Positions 9,826 to 18,809 of a DNA stretch of 64,000 nucleotides are shown here, piece by piece. Within the stretch, counting starts at the first letter, position 1; every line of letters starts with the position of its first letter. The translations under genes and the position numbers were made by a program. The DNA comes from a virus. The notes below the pieces were generated by a model. The model ran no database searches. It was not told where the DNA came from and saw nothing but the letters and a program-made list of their open reading frames with translations. The DNA lies in IMG/VR virus record IMGVR_UViG_3300010354_000047, positions 32,001 to 96,000 of that record; one strand, given 5' to 3'.

Positions 9826-11394
9826 GTGGCACAAAGATTTAAGGTAGCACCTGTCCCCCAGGGAGAAGTTAGCCGTTATACTTCTAATCCATATGCCCTG
9901 AGCAGCATTTACATGTTTGGCTCCAGTTCCCCGTTTACGGGTTCTGGAAACAGCATTGTAAGACCGAGTGACGACCTTCTCATTCAGAAAGGCGGAAATA
10001 GAGCCCTCTCTGTATACCAAAGGTTGCTAAATGATGAGCAGGTTCAGAGCTGCTTCTCTAAATTAACCCAGGAGATCACTGCGAGACCCTGGTATGTTCA
10101 GGAATTTAGCGGAAAACCAGGAGACCTTGCGATTCGTGACTTTGTAGCTGAGACTCTTGAAGACTTGGGAATTGACGATCTATACAAAGGTTTGGCAGAG
10201 GCTTTAATCGTCGGCTACAGCGTTAGCGAGGTTATGTGGAAAAAGTCCAAGCGCGGAGTTATCCCCTACGACATTCGCATGAGGGACCAAAGAAGATTCA
10301 TCTTTCAGGAGTCTGAAGATTCTCAAACAGGTTTCACAATGCGCTGCCTAACCTTCAATCGCATGTTTGAGGGTATTGAGTTACCGGCGAGAAAGTTCAT
10401 TGTGAATCGCTACTGGACCCAACACAACGGGGACCCCTACGGAACGGCAATGGGAAGAATTCTGTACCCGTTGGTTAAGTTTCGCAGAAGAGCGCTTGAG
10501 TCTTACGTTTTGTACGGAGACCGTTACGCTACCCCGACAGTTGTTGCAACGGCGCCATTGAGTGCTTCAACAGCAGAAGTGGACTCCATTTACGAAAGAA
10601 TTACCAACTTATCCCAAGAGACGGGATTCATTTTGCCAGACGGATTCAAGCTCGACTTTATCAATCCTTCAGGAACCCCGGACGTTTTCAAGGGTTTAAT
10701 TGACTACCTAGATAAGGAAATCAGTTTACTTTTGTGCGGTGAAAATGAAGCCGGACAAGCTGAGTCCGGTTCTCGAGCTTCTTCCCAAGTCGCTAACGTA
10801 GTCCGAATTGTTAAAGCTTCAGAAATCTCCGAAGCTATTTCCCACCTACTTACGAGGACTCTGGTCCGTTGGATTGTCGATCTAAACTTTGGAATCGACG
10901 TGGCTGCTCCGACCTTGACTCGAGAATTCCGAATCGAAGAGTCTAACCTCACAGCTTCGGACCTGTCAATGCTCGATCAGTTGGGCTTCAAGCCGAGAAG
11001 AGAGTGGGTGGAGAGGCACTTCAGAATCGAACTCGAGAATGAAGTGGGATTTAACACCACAGAGGAAAGCCCTGAGGAAAACGAAAGCTACAATCCTGAG
11101 GAAGACCTTTACGCTTCCATTTTCGGAGATGAGGCCCCTTCAGAGGAGTTCCCGGAGGAAGAAGGTACTTCTTTGGAAGAAACTCCGGAGGAGTTTCCGG
11201 AAGAGCAAACCGCCGAGGAAGAAACTCCAGAGGGAGACGATGAAGATCTATTCGACTCCGTATTCGGTGATGTTGAAGATTCAGAGGAGGATGTTCCCGA
11301 GGTGGATGCTCCCGAGGAAGAGACCCCCGAAGTGGAGAACCCTGCAGAAAAAAGTGACGATAAGAAAGCCAGTAAGGGTAAAAATAAGTTATGA
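9826..11394 (+). CDS. portal protein (Mu gp29 / DUF935-like) with acidic C-terminal tail
   Basis: YQRLLNDEQV, ALIVGYSVSEVMW, RDQRRF, LPARKFIV, DPYGTAMGRILY, YLDKEISLLLCGE. Confidence 0.88.
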   Translation: MAQRFKVAPVPQGEVSRYTSNPYALSSIYMFGSSSPFTGSGNSIVRPSDDLLIQKGGNRALSVYQRLLNDEQVQSCFSKLTQEITARPWYVQEFSGKPGDLAIRDFVAETLEDLGIDDLYKGLAEALIVGYSVSEVMWKKSKRGVIPYDIRMRDQRRFIFQESEDSQTGFTMRCLTFNRMFEGIELPARKFIVNRYWTQHNGDPYGTAMGRILYPLVKFRRRALESYVLYGDRYATPTVVATAPLSASTAEVDSIYERITNLSQETGFILPDGFKLDFINPSGTPDVFKGLIDYLDKEISLLLCGENEAGQAESGSRASSQVANVVRIVKASEISEAISHLLTRTLVRWIVDLNFGIDVAAPTLTREFRIEESNLTASDLSMLDQLGFKPRREWVERHFRIELENEVGFNTTEESPEENESYNPEEDLYASIFGDEAPSEEFPEEEGTSLEETPEEFPEEQTAEEETPEGDDEDLFDSVFGDVEDSEEDVPEVDAPEEETPEVENPAEKSDDKKASKGKNKL

Positions 11395-13979
11395 GTACTC
11401 CCAGTAACAAAGTGTTTACAAAACGTGTTCATATTTTTAAGGCAGGTCCTCAAATCTCTGCTCAAGGGGTAGAAAGAGAGTTCACTCCAGAAGACCTCCA
11501 ACAGGTTGTAGATTCTTACGACCCTAAAACCCACGAAGCTCCTTTAGTGATTGGGCATTCGGGGGATAATGATAGCGCACCATCTTTTGGATGGGTGAAG
11601 AAGTTTGTTCGGAAAGGTGAGGACCTTTACGCGGACGTCGATTTCACCGATGCAGCTAAAGATTTGGTGAAAGACGGCCACTACAGAAAAGTGTCTGTTT
11701 CATTTTATTCCCCTGAATCCCCTGTTAATCCTCATCAAGGCCACTGGAGTGCTCGTCACCTGGCCCTGTTAGGTGCTGCTCCACCCTCTGTAAAAGGTCT
11801 TGAAGCCTTCTCTTTCTCTGAGAAAGGAGTCTATGATTTTGCTACTACTTCTTCGATTGGTGAGATCTTTGACGAAGAACTCGGACCGACTCTTCTAATT
11901 GAGAGAAGCCCCTTAGAAATCTTGAAGGAAAAACTGCAAGAGGTCCGAGGGGACATGGACAACTCTCTCAAGGAACTAGAGGAAAACCAAGAAAATCAAT
12001 CCCAAGCAACTGCGGATGAAACAAGTCAACAATCAGCGGACGAAAAAACCGCACCCGAAAACCCTGCTCAACAATTTTCCGAAATGAAAAAGAAATTAGG
12101 GCGCGAAGGGGCCGAAGCCTCTGACTCCGCTCAGTCAATCGCAGACCTGGAAACTGAATTCCCAGAAGAAAAGTTTGAAGAAGGCGTCTCTCGCCGTGTG
12201 CGAAAGGGGGCCAACGGTCAAAAAGTTCAAGTCGTCGAACAAGTCTTCGAAGAAGACGATGAGATGTCTGAAGACCACAAAGAAATCCCCGAAGCCTTCA
12301 AAAAGAACATCGAAAAGATGAAGGCTAAAGCGAAAGGTGGACACAAAGCCGAAGCCGAAATGGAAGACGCAGACCACGGTGAACTTCCGCCAGCTCTTCG
12401 AAAGAACATGGAGAAGATGAAGGCAAAGAAGAAGATGCATGCGGAAGAGGAAGATGAGTCGGACGGAGAGTTCGCGGAAGTTTCCCACAAGACCGTGAGT
12501 AATCACAAACCTTCTTTCGGAAAGCATGCTCAAAAAGACGAAGAAGACCCAGCCGGACGTGGTAAAACTGGGCGTTCGACAAGCGACAGCTACGCTAATC
12601 GTCAGGCGGTTGGTGAGAGCGGAGAAGAAGATCGTGATACGATTGCCAAAAATGGCGAAGAAGACCTAGATCGTGTTCGAACTGCTAAAAGTGCTGAGGA
12701 AGACGCAGACCGCCTTAACACCGGTAAAGACTCCGAAGGTGACGACGACAGCGATGGCCGTTGGGCTGACCAGCCTGAAGGCAAGAGCCGCGCTCACAAC
12801 ATGGATCAATACGACGACGGAGAAGAAGGTCTTCCTCAAAGGAACAAACCCGGAGTCTCCGACGGAGATGAGCCAAGAGGTAGGGACGGAGGTCCAACTT
12901 CTTTCACGAGAAAGGTTGAAGAAGACCCTGATTCTGAGGACATTACGGTTCAACTCGAAAGCACAAAAGGAAACAAGGTTTCCCGAGTTCTTCACACGGC
13001 GTCTGGAGAAAAGAGGGCTCCTTTAAAGGGTGGCTCGATCTCCGACCATAGCGAAGAGTCTGACGGAGTCACAAGGAAGGCCAAAGAGGCAGCAATCTCT
13101 TCTGGTTCTGAGCCTCGCGGTCGGGATGATGGTCCAACCGAGTTCCCGGTTCGTTCCGAAGAAGACCCTGACGATATGGAACTGGCTGTCGATGTGGAAA
13201 GCATCGTTGACAATCCAAAAGTTCGAGTACTTCGCCAGAAGTCTGGAGATAAGGCGTCCGTTGACCACTCTGAAGAAGATATCTTAACCGATGACGACAT
13301 CGATGGGCTGATTGAGTCCATTCTTCAAGAGGTTTCCGAAGAAGACTTCGGTGAGAAAATGCCTTACACTAAGACGGGACTCGGTTCCACATATGGTTCC
13401 CGTAAGGCTAAACTCAAGTCCGAGGAAATGGATGAGGATGAGTACGAGGATGAAGAAGATGAGGAGGAGGATGAGGACGAAGAGTTCGCTGAAACTGAGT
13501 CCTTCTGCGGAACTGGTTCGATGGGCCAGTCTCGTTCCAAGGTCTATCCAGTGATGTTCGATGAGTTTCGCAAGCAACTCCACTCCCTTAAGAAGGAGAA
13601 TGAGAAACTCAGGAAGGAATACAAAGAGCACAAGGTTCGCAGCCGCAAAGAAAAAATTGCTGAGCAGGTGAACCAGTTGTATACCGAAGGTAAGATCACT
13701 GATGGTATTATTCCGCAAAGAGAGTTGCAGAACTACTGCGAAGGTCTCGAGTTCGGTACTCTCGAATTCTCCGAAGGGGAAACTCCTGCGTCCAAGCTGC
13801 TTCAACTCTTGGATCGCCTTCCGAACATGGTTTATTTCGGTGAAGTTGTTCAAGATGGCGTCTTTCAGGAAGATGACTTCGATCTAGATCCCCACACAAA
13901 AGCTCTCCGAATGGTTGAGAGCGGAGAGTGCTCAGACTACGTAGAAGCCATCAAACGCTGCATCGACTGGGGTTATTGA
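11391..13979 (+). CDS. prohead protease (Mu gpI-like) fused to long acidic scaffold region
   Basis: HEAPLVIGH, FGWVK, LYADVD, YRKVSVSFY, RHLALLGAAPPSVKGL, plus a C-terminal coiled coil. The start could be GTG 11412 based on spacing from GGGTAAA at 11376. Confidence 0.88.
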   Translation: MSTPSNKVFTKRVHIFKAGPQISAQGVEREFTPEDLQQVVDSYDPKTHEAPLVIGHSGDNDSAPSFGWVKKFVRKGEDLYADVDFTDAAKDLVKDGHYRKVSVSFYSPESPVNPHQGHWSARHLALLGAAPPSVKGLEAFSFSEKGVYDFATTSSIGEIFDEELGPTLLIERSPLEILKEKLQEVRGDMDNSLKELEENQENQSQATADETSQQSADEKTAPENPAQQFSEMKKKLGREGAEASDSAQSIADLETEFPEEKFEEGVSRRVRKGANGQKVQVVEQVFEEDDEMSEDHKEIPEAFKKNIEKMKAKAKGGHKAEAEMEDADHGELPPALRKNMEKMKAKKKMHAEEEDESDGEFAEVSHKTVSNHKPSFGKHAQKDEEDPAGRGKTGRSTSDSYANRQAVGESGEEDRDTIAKNGEEDLDRVRTAKSAEEDADRLNTGKDSEGDDDSDGRWADQPEGKSRAHNMDQYDDGEEGLPQRNKPGVSDGDEPRGRDGGPTSFTRKVEEDPDSEDITVQLESTKGNKVSRVLHTASGEKRAPLKGGSISDHSEESDGVTRKAKEAAISSGSEPRGRDDGPTEFPVRSEEDPDDMELAVDVESIVDNPKVRVLRQKSGDKASVDHSEEDILTDDDIDGLIESILQEVSEEDFGEKMPYTKTGLGSTYGSRKAKLKSEEMDEDEYEDEEDEEEDEDEEFAETESFCGTGSMGQSRSKVYPVMFDEFRKQLHSLKKENEKLRKEYKEHKVRSRKEKIAEQVNQLYTEGKITDGIIPQRELQNYCEGLEFGTLEFSEGETPASKLLQLLDRLPNMVYFGEVVQDGVFQEDDFDLDPHTKALRMVESGECSDYVEAIKRCIDWGY

Positions 13980-14708: not shown

Positions 14709-14780
14709 ACCTTTCAACTTAACTCGGTAAAAAACAAGTCCGAGAGCAAACAACTTTTGAAGTCCTTCACACATACTAAC

Positions 14781-15254
14781 ATGTCCCTTAATATCGCACC
14801 CGTTTACGGTAAGCAGTTTATCCGCTACGCGGAAACCTGGGAAGCCGCAACCGACAACGAAGACGGTGATGTAGGAGTCGTTGAGATTCCTGAATTCGCC
14901 GTTGTTGCTTACGCAACCTACGCTGGCTCCAACAAAGTTTGCGCCCCTGGCGACCTCGATACTTTTGAAGGCGCTGTTGTTGGTGTAAACCAGGCTTACA
15001 TTCCGACCTCCTTGGCTCAGCCTTACACCGCTCGCCAAGCTTCCATTGCTACCAGCGGTTCCTTGATCGTTGAAGTCAGCGCCGATACCGTCGCTTCTTT
15101 CGCTCTCAACACACAACTCGCTGTTGGCCCGAACGGAAAGGCCCTCCCCGCCGCTGATGGTGGAATCGAGGTTACCGTTGACGGAACTACTCCTCTCATT
15201 CGTGAGATTGTTGAGATCGGTGGTCGCACCATCCTGATCGTTTCCTTCAACTGA
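14781..15254 (+). CDS. head decoration / capsid cement protein
   Basis: Small beta-rich protein just upstream of the capsid gene (VVGVNQ, IATSGSLIVEV, LAVGPNGKA). ATG 14781 is preferred over TTG 14757. Confidence 0.7.
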   Translation: MSLNIAPVYGKQFIRYAETWEAATDNEDGDVGVVEIPEFAVVAYATYAGSNKVCAPGDLDTFEGAVVGVNQAYIPTSLAQPYTARQASIATSGSLIVEVSADTVASFALNTQLAVGPNGKALPAADGGIEVTVDGTTPLIREIVEIGGRTILIVSFN

Positions 15255-15277
15255 GCCTCTTCAGTTTTTCTCTCCCG

Positions 15278-15304
15278 AGAGCTTCGAAAGGGGCTCTTTT
15301 TTTT
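15278..15304 (+). terminator. rho-independent terminator
   Basis: AGAGCTTC-GAAA-GGGGCTCT hairpin followed by a T run. Confidence 0.8.
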
Positions 15305-15322
15305 GTGCGGCGGGGAAAAGTG

Positions 15323-15329
15323 GGGTATA
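15323..15329 (+). promoter_or_regulatory. putative late promoter variant GGGTATA upstream of major capsid gene
   Basis: Lies directly after a terminator and before capsid exon 1. Confidence 0.55.
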
Positions 15330-15420
15330 ACTTGGTAGCTTGCGAGTCGAATCTTTTCGAACGCAGGCCGAATTGCGAAAGCAATTCTTGAAGTCAACCT
15401 AGAAAAGGAAATCATTAATT

Positions 15421-15456
15421 ATGATGAATCTTCAACAAACCTACGCTGGCGTGGAT
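15421..15456 (+). CDS. major capsid protein, exon 1 (MMNLQQTYAGVD)
   Basis: AAGGA lies upstream. The exon ends in U at a group I 5' splice site. Splicing gives VD|PILT, a typical N-terminal capsid motif. Confidence 0.85.
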
Positions 15457-16408
15457 TAAAAAGGTCCCTTTCTTCAGTAATGAAGATCGAAAACTGGGTG
15501 AATTGCTGAAACGCTGAGATGCCAATCAGCAGCCAAGTTTACTTCGGGTCCCTACCGTTAAGATAGGGTGAAGTAAAAAGGTTCAACGACTAGGAGATGA
15601 CTGACCCAAGAATAAATCTCCCACGAGTGCCCAGCTCCATGGATTATTTTCCTTCATTGAAGACCTTCTCCCGAACAGAAGATCGAAACCCGACTTTTAC
15701 TCGGAAAGACACCACATTATACCGAAATGTGTTGGGGGCTCCGATGAAGAAGAAAACCTCATTTACCTCACACCTTCAGAGCACCTGATCGCTCACCAGC
15801 TTCTGGTTAAAACCTTCCCGGAACATTCAAAGCTCAAATCCGCACTGTGGATTATGAGTCACAAGAACGGAAAAAGTTTAACCCCAAAGGAATACGAAGA
15901 ACTTAGGCTTTTATGCTCAGAAACCCTTTCCACTCGGAGAAAGGGGGGTACTTCTCAAGAGACGAAAGATAAGATTAGTAAGATTCACAAAGGTAAGACG
16001 ATTTCAAAAGAGCACAAATTGGCAAACAGCTCGGCTGTCAGAAATTATCTTTTGAATACACCGGAAGGGAGAAGCCAAGCCCAAAGAGGAGGAAAGACTA
16101 CTGGAAAACTCCCTTGGTGGAATAAAGACGGAATTACTAGACGATCTTACGAGTCACCAGGGGAAGGTCGGGTGAGGGGCAGAGGCAAGGGAATTAGCCC
16201 TGCAATGGCCGAAGCGGGATCAAAGAACAAAGGAAAAGTTTACTGGTCCCGAGTTAATTCTTCAGGTGAAATAGAGAGGAGGCGAAGTTTCTCCCCTCCT
16301 TCCGAAGAGTGGACTAGAGGTTATAATCCGGGATGATGATATAGTCTGAACTTTTCAGAATCCAATGAAAAGAGTTAAGGGATAAAAAGCCCTTAAGATA
16401 ACAATTTG
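15457..16408 (+). mobile_element. group I intron 1 in major capsid gene
   Basis: P1: exon GGAU pairs with GUCC (15464-15467), with U.G at the splice site. Core elements GGGTGAATTGCTG, AATCAGCAGCCAAG, GGTTCAACGACTAG and GATATAGTCTG are present. The terminal G is at 16408. Confidence 0.9.
15639..16336 (+). CDS. intron-encoded HNH homing endonuclease with NUMOD3-like motif (apparent frameshift near 15647-15650)
   Basis: The frame of the 15854 ORF extends upstream as SERHHIIPKCVGGSDEEENLIYLTPSEHLIAHQLL. ATG 15639 is one base out of frame at a T run. SQETKDKISKIHKGK is NUMOD3-like. Confidence 0.8.
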
Positions 16409-17267
16409 CCTATCCTCACAACGCTAGCACAAGGTTTCATGCTCCCGTCTACAAACATCGCAAACTTTATTGCGCCTGTTGTAGACACTCCTACCCGTGC
16501 AGGACGTATTCTGCGCTTTGGTAAGGAACAATTCGCAATCAACGACTTCCGTCGTGCCTATGGAACCAACATTCCCTACGTTCAGAGCCGTTACGACTCT
16601 GAGCCCTACGCCCTCGAACAAGAGGTCGTGGCTTGGGAACTTCCAGAAGAAGTGATCGAGAACGCTGGGGAAGGTCCTGCACAAGTCGACCTCCGGGCGA
16701 TTGAAACAAGGAACGCAATGTCGAGAATCATGAACTCTTATGAGTATACTGTTTCTCAGGCCGTTAGCGTTACTGGTTCCTACAACCCCTATGAGCCCTG
16801 GAACACCGTTCCCGGTTCTCAAACTGGCCTCGGCTTCGAAACCTGGACAGATTTCAACACCGCCTATGCAGCCGCTTCCGGTCCTGCTGCGTGGTCCGCT
16901 CTTTCTTCGAACCCCATCGAAGACGTGAAGACCCTTAAGCGTTCCGTTGCTAACCAGATCGGTATTCGTCCGAACTCTGCCGTTCTTGGAACTGCAGTTT
17001 TTGACCTGTTGCTGACCAACCAGGCGATCCTTGAGCGTATCAAGTACACCAGCGCTGACAGCATCGACACTGACGTCATTGCTCGCTACTTCGGTCTCGA
17101 GCGTGGTGTTCGCGTTGCAGAAGGTCGTTACTTGGCACAAGACGGAACCCTCCAACCGGTATTCCCGGCTAACGGAATCCTCCTGTTCTACAGCCCGAGT
17201 GGTCCTTCTGATTCCATCATGCCTGCTGGTGGTGCTAACGCCGCAACTCCGGCTTTTGCCTACACGT
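16409..17267 (+). CDS. major capsid protein, exon 2
   Basis: PILTTLAQGF..IANFIAPVV..GRILRFGKEQF..IGIRPNSAVLG..ILERIKYT..PAFAYT. Confidence 0.9.
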
Positions 17268-18177
17268 ATGTTAATAACATCGTTCCATTCAAGCGAGTTA
17301 GATGCGTGGTTTGACGGTAACGTCAAATTACCTGCCTGATCAGCAGGTCAATGGGGTGAATTGCTGGGACACCTGACGGTTTCAGAAATGAAATACAAGG
17401 TAATCAGCAGCCAAGTTTACTTCGTCGAATCAGGACTAAACTGATTGAAGTAAAAAGGTTCAACGACTAGACGATGAGTTTCGACAACAATAACTCGTCC
17501 ACGAGTGCCCCACTCCTTAAATGCTTTTACCGAAACAAGTACGAAAGATGCTACTGGGAACTAATCTCAGTAACACCTTCCGAGAAACCAAGAACCTTTA
17601 AAACTGAAGAGCACCACATAATCCCTAAGTGCTTAGGGGGACATCCTCGGGAAAAGAGCAACCTTAGCTACCCAACTCCGAGACAACATTTCGTTTTACA
17701 TCGATTGTTGAATAAGATGTTTCCAGATCACGAAGGACTTTTCTACGCTATATTCCGAATGAGCTGTTCGGGAAATAGCAGAGTTTACTCCCACTTAAAG
17801 TTGAACTATGTTCGATCAAGTGAGCATAACCAAAGAATCTCTGAATCTCTACGAGGACAGAGGTTGACGGAAACTCGGAAGAAAAAAAAATCCCGTGCTA
17901 GACTCGCCTCCCCAAATACCTTAAGCGGTGAAGATCACCCCAACTCTAACAAAGACTTAGAAAGTCGAAAAGAAGAGATAAGAAGTGTCTGGTTGGAAAA
18001 TGGCAAACCGGGAGACGTAAAACTAGGCCAATTTCTTGGCTTAGGAACAGGAAAGAAAGGTTACAGGTGTAAAACTCTTCAAAGGTTCATAAAAGAATTT
18101 AAGGATGAAGATATAGTCTGAACTCCGTAAAAATACGGAGAAGTGAAGGATAAAGAGCCTTCGCGTTAACAAATTTG
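17268..18177 (+). mobile_element. group I intron 2 in major capsid gene
   Basis: P1: exon CACGU pairs with GCGUG (17304-17308). The same core elements as intron 1 are present (GGGTGAATTGCTGG, AATCAGCAGCCAAG, GGTTCAACGACTAG, AAGATATAGTCTG). It ends AAATTTG at 18177. Confidence 0.9.
17474..18121 (+). CDS. intron-encoded HNH homing endonuclease
   Basis: EEHHIIPKCLGG...NLSYPTPRQHFVLHRLL; SEHNQRISESLRG is NUMOD3-like; the stop overlaps the intron core. Confidence 0.85.
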   Translation: MSFDNNNSSTSAPLLKCFYRNKYERCYWELISVTPSEKPRTFKTEEHHIIPKCLGGHPREKSNLSYPTPRQHFVLHRLLNKMFPDHEGLFYAIFRMSCSGNSRVYSHLKLNYVRSSEHNQRISESLRGQRLTETRKKKKSRARLASPNTLSGEDHPNSNKDLESRKEEIRSVWLENGKPGDVKLGQFLGLGTGKKGYRCKTLQRFIKEFKDEDIV

Positions 18178-18338
18178 ATCAACTCACCGGAACACCCGCT
18201 GTCCGCCCTGAGTACTACATCCGTGAGCGTCGCGTTGTCCGCGCAGAAATCACTATCGAGCGTGTGATCAACCTGGTCGGCCTTGGTGCAACTGGTCTTA
18301 TCGGTTCTGGCGCTATGATCACCGACATCCTGTCCTGA
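18178..18338 (+). CDS. major capsid protein, exon 3
   Basis: T|AT CAA restores AYTYQLTGTPAVRPEYYIRERRVVRAEITIERVINLVGLGATGLIGSGAMITDILS*. Exons total 36+859+161=1056 nt (351 aa). Confidence 0.88.
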
Positions 18339-18365
18339 TCGGATAGGAACTAAGGAGGTGCTCAA

Positions 18366-18809
18366 ATGGCTATTCTCAGACCCATTACTAAGGCCCAGTA
18401 CGAAGTTTCTTTCGTCGCGCCAGATGGACCAACCCTGATTGCTACCTTCACGAAGTTCTCAGGAATCAAAGATTCCTCAGACAGCAGTGAATACGCCAAC
18501 GGAACTGGAAACCGTATTTACCATGTTGTCGGCCCAAGAAAAGCTGATAACATCACTCTTACTGCCCCCTACGATCCAACGATCTTCAAGCAGCTTGAGG
18601 TTTACTGGCTCCAGTACAATTGTCGTGAAATCACAGTTACCGTCACTCCAAAAGACTGCGTTGGAAACGGCTCCGCCCCTGCTGGTGGACAATACACATG
18701 CTACGGCTGTCAATTTGTCTCACTCAACACGGCTGAAGCCGACCGCGAAAGCGGCGACGTTCAAGAGATCGAAATCGAACTAACGGTTAACTCTTGGGAT
18801 CGTACCTGA
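18366..18809 (+). CDS. tail tube protein (T4 gp19-like)
   Basis: Strong AAGGAGGT RBS; FTKFSGI..EYANG..GPRKADNITL..VQEIEIELTV. Confidence 0.8.
   Translation: MAILRPITKAQYEVSFVAPDGPTLIATFTKFSGIKDSSDSSEYANGTGNRIYHVVGPRKADNITLTAPYDPTIFKQLEVYWLQYNCREITVTVTPKDCVGNGSAPAGGQYTCYGCQFVSLNTAEADRESGDVQEIEIELTVNSWDRT

Follow-up and report, generated by a model that had tools for sequence, protein, structure and literature searches.

A major capsid gene interrupted by two related group I introns in an uncultured aquatic phage

The group I introns of the T4 genes td, nrdB and sunY and the SPO1-type DNA polymerase introns, with their HNH endonuclease I-HmuI, reside in genes of nucleotide or DNA metabolism. 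Several such introns may share one gene; in Staphylococcus phage Twort, orf142 reportedly holds three and nrdE two. In virion genes, the major capsid gene of mycobacteriophage LittleE is interrupted by a group I intron, with splicing shown in RNA, and a capsid gene intron of lactococcal phage Tuc2009 is cited in the same report (Pope et al. 2013, PMC3706429). In Synechococcus phage S-CBWM1, psbA contains a group I intron whose endonuclease open reading frame (ORF) measures 633 bp (PMC8557907), and the Jug jumbo gut phages have a mean of 18.5 group I introns per genome, with terL in two to three pieces (PMC12363816). Here we analyse 64,000 nucleotides (nt) of viral DNA, hereafter the window (G000:C1:32001-96000, part of a 136,373-bp IMG/VR virus record with an estimated completeness of 61%), in which the gene for the major capsid protein is very likely split by two mobile group I introns that belong to a single family, the first inserted after codon 12 and the second inside codon 299.

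Three capsid exons and their junctions

Three exons on the plus strand (15421–15456, 16409–17267 and 18178–18338) join to 1056 nt, that is 351 codons and a TGA, with no internal stop. Their coordinates and the in-frame join had been given correctly in an earlier reading of the same DNA (the original prediction). The first exon consists of 12 codons (MMNLQQTYAGVD) and is followed directly by an in-frame TAA at 15457–15459. The second, of 859 nt, breaks off one base into Tyr codon 299, and the third supplies the last two bases of this codon, 52 further codons and the TGA. With slashes marking the splice sites, the boundaries read GTGGAT/TAAAAAGG...AATTTG/CCTATC for intron 1 (15457–16408, 952 nt) and TACACGT/ATGTTAAT...AAATTTG/ATCAAC for intron 2 (17268–18177, 910 nt), both on the plus strand. 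Both 5′ exons end in U and both introns end, as foreseen, in a G (16408 and 18177). The intron 2 junction can be slid by 1–2 nt without any change to the mRNA; the combination of a U-ending exon and a G-ending intron occurs only at 17267/18178. By the profile matches of exon 2 (Pfam Phage_cap_E, PF03864, 35.8 bits with a cut-off of 22.9; phrog_1005 major head protein, E 3.5e-42), the interrupted gene is that of a major capsid protein of the lambda gpE/HK97 type. An automatic caller is expected to report a TTG-started ORF of 302 amino acids (aa) at 16406–17314 (plus strand), which runs 47 nt into intron 2 and corresponds to the truncated capsid with a false C-terminus of which the original prediction had warned.

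Homologous capsid proteins are continuous across both junctions, a comparison that had been proposed as a check and that S-CBWM1, S-TIM5 and the IMG/VR relatives all bear out. The closest named capsid is that of S-CBWM1 (341 aa, uninterrupted, 65% identity over exon 2), followed by that of S-TIM5 (34% identity). In a MAFFT alignment of the spliced product with these two proteins there is no gap at either joint, MMNLQQTYAGVD/PILTT standing opposite MMNLNETFVGVE-PILTT at the first and PAFAYTY/QLTG opposite PAFAYTYQLAG at the second. The window phage is best taken as an uncultured aquatic tailed phage and, at 65% identity in the capsid, a distant relative of S-CBWM1. We confirmed 248 capsid relatives in IMG/VR and compared the best 80, which are 86–92% identical at the amino acid level. 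The site of intron 2 is free of an insert in all 80, the gap between the exon 2 and exon 3 queries being just the 3 nt of the split Tyr codon. At codons 12/13, the site of intron 1, the same holds for 78 of the 78 relatives with upstream DNA. The 12-codon N-terminus runs unbroken up to PILTT in 73 of them (63 with MMNLQQTYAGVD, 10 with MMNLSQTYAGVD), and the remaining five (L012, L052, L069, L074 and L077) have an intron elsewhere, after codon 3. A megablast search with 15200–18600 gave no match in the phage collection.

Splicing of intron 1 is supported by environmental RNA. From seven sequencing runs listed, the metatranscriptomes X3 and X4 and the DNA runs X1 (the likely source run) and X2 (from a different study and year) were compared as Logan contigs. 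Contig 17 of X3 (151 nt, depth 2.9, no mismatches) joins 15358–15456 straight to 16409–16460. The 952 nt skipped have the ends TA..TG, no letters are common to both sides of the joint, and this is exactly the predicted excision of intron 1. The joint 15456/16409 was not seen in the DNA runs X1 and X2. Each of the 80 close relatives compared is at most 86% identical to the 151-mer, so the RNA comes from this genotype and not from a known intron-less relative. Contigs from X2 span the boundaries 15456/57, 16408/09 and 17267/68; thus both introns recur in an independent data set. Those of the source run span every intron boundary. RNA contigs over 17285–17614 represent either excised intron 2 or pre-mRNA, which are indistinguishable here; splicing of intron 2 is predicted from homology and from the covariance models described below.

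Group I architecture of the two inserts

Both inserts in the capsid gene are group I introns of one family, as the original prediction had it. With the Rfam model RF00028, intron 2 scores 61.4 bits (E 3.8e-13), above the gathering score of 50, and intron 1 reaches 45.3 bits (E 4.4e-10) in a local search; over the whole 136-kb record the model finds no match besides these two. An ORF-less homologue of intron 1 at the same site in a relative lies under an RF00028 match of 82.6 bits (L087 4846–5109). We built a family covariance model, R1, from an alignment of 14 ORF-less relatives. Its RNAalifold consensus comprises 49 pairs in P3, P4, P5, P6, P6a, P7.1, P8, P9 and P9.1, and compensatory double changes occur at 35 of these pairs. 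R1 recognizes intron 2 at 17307–17586 (99.3 bits) and 18030–18182 (76.4 bits) and intron 1 at 15450–15725 (87.5 bits) and 16230–16414 (70.2 bits). At E values of up to 1 the matches in the 64-kb window are exactly these four intron halves (E 8e-29 to 5e-20), and the whole 136-kb record contains the same four only.

Helices were assigned by hand and their complementarity was checked by script; all listed stems are complementary in both window introns and in the intron of L094. P1 of intron 1 pairs GGAU (15453–15456) with GUCC (15464–15467) over 4 base pairs (bp), and that of intron 2 pairs CACGUAU (17263–17269) with AUGCGUG (17302–17308), 5 bp with a 2-bp extension. The U•G pair at the 5′ splice site that had been described for both is formed by U15456 and G15464 and by U17267 and G17304, respectively. 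Of the P10 pairings called plausible in both introns, that of intron 2 (3 bp) holds up and that of intron 1 is essentially absent.

The remaining helices of intron 1 are P2 (15472–76/15481–85, GUAA loop), P3 (15494–98/15630–34), P4 (15504–09/15526–31), a P5 of ~2 bp, P6a (15538–45/15570–77), P6b (15550–54/15564–68), P7 (15588–92/16342–46), P7.1 (15593–98/15616–21), P8 (15636–45/16325–33), P9 (16351–57/16366–72) and P9.1 (16375–81/16390–96). Those of intron 2 are P2 (17313–16/17321–24, GUAA loop), P3 (17352–56/17508–12), P4 (17362–67/17404–09), P5 (17372–74/17398–400), P6a (17416–23/17447–54), P6b (17428–33/17441–46), P7 (17465–69/18114–18), P7.1 (17476–80/17492–96), P8 (17514–21/18098–105), P9 (18123–29/18134–40) and P9.1 (18145–49/18158–62), with P2.1 (17330–35/17343–48) and P5a (17380–84/17389–93) as extra stems.

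When the two window introns are compared with two relatives, P2, P3, P6b, P7.1, P8, P9 and P9.1 differ in sequence and keep their pairing, and the P2 loop is a GNRA tetraloop in all four (GUAA, GUAA, GUGA and GCAA). Without their ORFs, the ribozyme cores of the window introns are identical at 181 of 288 aligned positions, and the two core strings quoted as shared in the original prediction indeed align in both. The terminal G16408 and G18177 sit in a conserved tail, AACAA..UG, that is also present in relatives. In the Michel–Westhof classes, subgroup IA is characterized by one or more extra pairings, P7.1 and P7.2, located after P7 and ahead of the 3′ strand of P3. The single hairpin found there in both introns (15593–15621 and 17476–17496), which covaries within the family (alignment columns 187–190/213–216), may point to an IA-like architecture by this criterion. 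The P1 that Rfam places in a hairpin within exon 1 for intron 1 (U at 15442) and at 17289 for intron 2 was rejected because it gives no in-frame product with a terminal G and disagrees with the RNA joint and the homologues. A pairing GUUCA/UGAAC flanking P7 was dropped, not being conserved in L094. A distant blastn search of the phage collection with the 5′ core of intron 2 returned four records, each covering ~20% of the query, among them Bacillus phage SP-15 and two fecal contigs; similarity of the window introns to this collection extends over ~55 nt of core only.

We propose that, in the pre-mRNA of the late operon, each intron would fold into a P1–P9.1 ribozyme whose internal guide pairs over 4–5 bp with the 3′ end of the exon preceding it, with the U•G wobble at the splice site, and that splicing would join the three exons into the 351-codon frame. 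Ribosomes on unspliced RNA would stop after 12 codons at intron 1, or 15 codons into intron 2, and these early stops would limit how far translation enters the ribozymes. Phages commonly have free-standing HNH genes, and one may ask whether the inserts are instead free-standing endonuclease cassettes, inteins or assembly chimeras. This seems scarcely credible: inteins are ruled out because in-frame stops follow both 5′ junctions, covariance-model matches lie on both sides of each ORF, the RNA joint falls precisely on the predicted positions, contigs of the source run extend across all boundaries, and pieces of 12 and 53 aa are implausible as stand-alone parts of a capsid.

A number of observations nevertheless weigh against a gene split by two functional introns. 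The RF00028 score of intron 1 is below the gathering score, its P5 has just ~2 bp and its P1 4 bp, and its P10 is negligible. The evidence for its splicing is a single assembled contig of 151 nt at a depth of 2.9, from a library that possibly contains DNA, and an isogenic intron-less strain is a formally conceivable source of the joint. No RNA joint was seen for intron 2, which is uninformative since the junction has no RNA cover (no RNA contig over 17138–17251); of the two spliced junctions by which the original prediction was to be judged, that of intron 1 is thus the one recovered. Finally, the endonuclease of intron 1 cannot be produced from its conserved ATG without a frameshift.

The introns of T4 depend on translation and chaperones in vivo. 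In a similar manner at least one of the two introns, the likelier candidate being intron 1, might be non-autonomous and need a protein cofactor or RNA chaperone, translation or the product of the neighbouring intron. The short P5 and P1 of intron 1 and its lower RF00028 score would suit such a dependence, but it is the splice of intron 1 that is actually observed in RNA and its core helices other than P5 are all intact; we regard this alternative as rather unlikely. Rather, we infer that the two introns splice autonomously.

Endonuclease frames and the intron family

Each intron carries an HNH homing-endonuclease ORF in its P8 loop, on the same strand as the capsid gene. That of intron 2 (17474–18121) is intact and encodes 215 aa; it begins with an ATG at the P7.1 hairpin and, with its final codons, extends across the 3′ strands of P8 and P7. 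The ORF of intron 1 (15597–16336) starts in or beside the P7.1 stem, ends inside the 3′ strand of P8 and is frameshifted. Its ATG at 15597 opens a frame of 63 codons with a stop at 15786–15788, and the HNH frame, open over 243 codons from 15605 to 16336, lacks any ATG, GTG or TTG upstream of 15854. The protein start read from the ATG (MTDPRINLPRVP) agrees with that of the intact ORFs in L094 and L091, which places the frame break further downstream. An X2 DNA contig has one extra T behind 15646, at the T-run 15647–15650, that would restore the HNH frame; this contig, at a depth of 3–4.6, contains three further frame-disrupting indels. Probably one T was lost in this T-run and the intron 1 endonuclease is decaying. 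A rescue by programmed −1 frameshifting at U UUU (15647–15650) or by initiation at ATT 15656 found no support. The X2 variant of intron 1 (window 15608–16304) is 95–97% identical and has four indels in the endonuclease ORF with lengths not divisible by three (+T after 15646, +GG after 15733, −1 at 15871 and +G after 16087), which reflect either contig errors or an endonuclease that has decayed independently.

Both ORFs match phrog_655 (E 2.9e-41 for intron 1, 1.1e-30 for intron 2). The Pfam HNH profile (PF01844) recognizes the intron 1 ORF with 22.0 bits (cut-off 21.4), and a Pfam search with the intron 2 ORF gave no match, even at E 5. The two share the motif HHIIPKC..GG...NL within an HNH core of 56 aa at 52% identity, and their C-terminal parts are unrelated, so that the original description of two different HNH genes is right for the C-terminal parts and too strong for the homologous core. 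Intact homologues of the intron 2 ORF (216–225 aa) are found in L087 and L090, and the ORF of intron 1 is 30% identical over 195 aa (E 2e-13) to the one that L094 carries at the codon 3 site. Distant HNH homing endonucleases of T4-like phages were recovered by tblastn. One long open frame of 211–225 codons is present in seven of the eight ORF-bearing family members examined, the exception being intron 1 of the window. Endonuclease activity and homing are presumed for the window ORFs. Since both ORFs start in or beside P7.1 and end in the 3′ strands of P8 and P7 (intron 2) or of P8 (intron 1), ribozyme folding would compete with translation of the endonucleases. With their starts inside the ribozyme structure, the ORFs are probably translated poorly, or just from misfolded or excised RNA. 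In a co-infection, the endonucleases would cut intron-less capsid alleles, into which repair would then copy the intron.

The intron pair of the window is in our opinion a local trace of a wider process: it is likely that one group I intron family has invaded a single capsid gene lineage-wide, at ~15 sites and with 0–13 introns per allele. A 23-mer quoted in the original prediction occurs exactly in eight IMG/VR contigs, and six of these contain arrays of ORF-less RF00028 matches, mostly of 80–100 bits and 17–106 nt apart. The spacers within the arrays are capsid exons. Introns were mapped with a custom spliced nucleotide alignment guided by the coding sequence (CDS) of the uninterrupted relative L007. 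The capsid gene of L087 has 12 introns, that of L090 nine, with exons that join to 1056 nt and are identical to L007 at 349 of 352 positions, and that of L093 eleven in a contig that ends at CDS nt 848. The record containing L087 (G001; 279,339 bp, direct terminal repeats, rated 100% complete) has its capsid gene (L259, G001:C1:71500-78300, minus strand) in 14 exons separated by 13 introns over 5781 nt. Of this length 4725 nt (82%) are intron and some exons are as short as 5, 8, 9 and 10 nt, and the joined ORF is intact (351 aa, 348 of 352 positions as in L007). Altogether, 9–13 capsid introns are present in L259, L087, L090, L092/L255, L093, L088 and L089. Sixteen more loci have capsid alleles with 3–10 introns. 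A second group of contigs with this range of intron numbers (L217, L218, L224, L228, L235, L237, L239, L244, L247, L248 and L251–L254) shows an additional site near CDS nt 74 (a 215-nt insert) and alternates between ORF-less and ORF-bearing forms at sites 9, 93, 318 and 356. The multi-intron alleles were assembled from short reads across near-repetitive elements; in favour of these assemblies, six contigs were obtained from different samples and the joined ORFs are intact.

About 15 distinct sites are occupied, after CDS nt 9, 36, 41, ~74, 93, 150, 160, 192, 273, 281, 303, 318, 356, 895 and 926, and the window introns are those at 36 and 895. For site 895 the aligner returned 893; a shift by 2 gives a U-ending exon with a G-ending intron and brings back YTYQ. 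Inserts of 215 nt at ~nt 74 and of 329 nt at nt 895 are putative introns, assigned from the alignment and not from individual covariance-model matches. Site 36 holds an ORF-less intron of 261–276 nt in 19 of 19 measurable loci, and the 952-nt intron of the window, identical to the L087 form at 170 of 211 aligned positions, is the only ORF-bearing form seen there. A site 36 junction pattern occurs in 48 stretches, with an intron core following in 23. The 22-mer of the site 895 junction is found in five contigs, and those examined have intact ORFs of 216–225 aa. The introns examined at this site are ~75% identical to intron 2 of the window and bear ORFs in L087 and L090. Both ORF-less and endonuclease-bearing forms were seen at seven sites (9, 93, 273, 281, 318, 356 and 895), and empty alleles of the capsid sites exist in the uninterrupted relatives. 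A 4-bp guide to the intron's own exon lies within intron nt 5–25 in 17 of 23 distinct introns, compared with 127 of 460 mismatched exon–intron pairs; the exceptions include the introns at site 895, where the guide lies 37 nt in. With a 4-nt guide matching its own micro-exon, each intron of an array could be spliced independently. A census with the pattern GGTTCAACGACTAN{20,50}ACGAGTGCCC was abandoned, as it returned at least 119 stretches and is a general phage intron motif, useless for counting.

In G001, 15 of the 18 R1 matches fall in the capsid region. The other three lie within the DNA primase gene (L258, G001:C1:19300-22700, minus strand; 36–68 bits), between two gene halves that match phrog_25243 at profile positions 12–273 and 342–585. 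The intron after codon 3 represents a third site, seen in L094:3390-4279 (the contig of L052) and also in L012, L069, L074, L077 and L091. Its first exon is 9 nt long (ATGATGAAT/.../CTCCAG), and the intron of ~890 nt contains an intact HNH ORF of 222 aa with a GTG or ATG start in P7.1. A few side observations concern the family. An ORF-less intron of the same family occurs in L085 (989–1238) in the gene just upstream of the capsid gene, after ...GGAAAGCAGT/; the gene it interrupts is a homologue of window 14757–15254. The 277-nt intron after CDS nt 93 (L087, L090, L093, L092, L089 and L259) ends in A (...GTATATTA/TTCATAGC); no other boundary yields the same mRNA, and a non-G end would be unusual for group I. 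In the alignment, the introns of L093 have two or three versions each of P5, P6a, P7.1 and P8 in various combinations, a mixing of modules that suggests recombination among intron copies.

Coexistence of empty, ORF-less and ORF-bearing alleles, together with the decaying endonuclease of intron 1, fits a homing cycle at the sequence level. For the dense arrays, a few HNH endonucleases could cut the gene, and in the course of repair naive alleles would also acquire adjacent ORF-less introns by co-conversion. Such collaborative homing is a phenomenon of cyanophage psbA, and by analogy co-conversion or collaborative homing is a likely origin of the arrays. The frameshift in the intron 1 endonuclease and the missing RNA joint of intron 2 could instead be taken as signs that one or both introns are dead relics in a defective genome, whose capsid would be truncated or come from a co-infecting helper. 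This is very improbable, as the exons are intact and in frame and neither ribozyme core is incomplete. The genotype, moreover, has an assembly depth of ~15 and recurs in a run of a different study, and the joined ORF is preserved in relatives whose capsid gene has as many as 13 of these introns. We accordingly retain the interpretation of a capsid gene interrupted by two mobile introns.

The gene order around the capsid gene is that of S-CBWM1 gp174–gp178. The upstream neighbour (11391–13979) is an ORF of 862 aa with a head-maturation-protease N-terminus (phrog_976, E 8.9e-63) and, behind it, a very long low-complexity region of acidic character, probably representing a protease–scaffold fusion. 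The downstream neighbour (18366–18809) encodes a tail-tube-like protein. A terminator-like hairpin with a T-run is located at 15277–15298, between the upstream gene and the capsid 5′ untranslated region, and the spliced RNA contig begins downstream of it at 15358.

Consequences and comparison with described systems

To produce virions, such phages would have to splice the late transcript that they need in the greatest amount, and do so precisely and efficiently, two times in the window phage and 13 times in G001. Marker-gene surveys by the major capsid protein would miss or mis-size phages of this kind; besides the truncated capsid expected for the window, gene callers should report none at all in the multi-intron relatives. 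With alleles that are empty, contain ORF-less introns or carry endonuclease genes, at least one of these in decay, these capsid genes offer a natural system for the homing cycle and for the spread of introns within one gene, and the family is also a source of many compact (215–300 nt) ribozymes with a 4-nt exon guide each.

In common with T4 and SPO1-type introns, those of the window have an embedded endonuclease, a stop soon after the 5′ splice site and an endonuclease start inside the ribozyme structure. They differ from these in that the T4 and SPO1-type introns have metabolism genes as hosts and mostly carry the ORF in other loops. Phage Twort likewise has several related group I introns within one gene, reportedly three at most, compared with two in the window and 13 in G001, where exons of 5–10 nt occur.

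Group I introns in capsid genes are already known from LittleE and Tuc2009, and the window pair joins them. The open full texts, supplementary files aside, yielded no phage capsid gene with many introns and no capsid intron in cyanophage-like phages. The LittleE intron resembles those described here by interrupting the most highly expressed virion gene, by the U at the exon end and G at the intron end, by carrying a homing endonuclease and by being present in some cluster members only; it differs in being single and in having a LAGLIDADG-like ORF on the opposite strand (PMC3706429). The window, in contrast, has two introns of the same family with same-strand HNH ORFs in P8 and a first exon of 12 codons, and its relatives have up to 13 introns in the capsid gene. 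S-CBWM1, which belongs to the same broad phage lineage and also has an ORF-bearing group I intron, carries it in psbA (PMC8557907), and its capsid gene is uninterrupted. The Jug phages share with the relatives of the window phage many small ORF-less group I introns in essential genes, validated by metatranscriptomes. Their introns are, however, distributed over many genes (PMC12363816), whereas those of G001 are concentrated in a single capsid gene.

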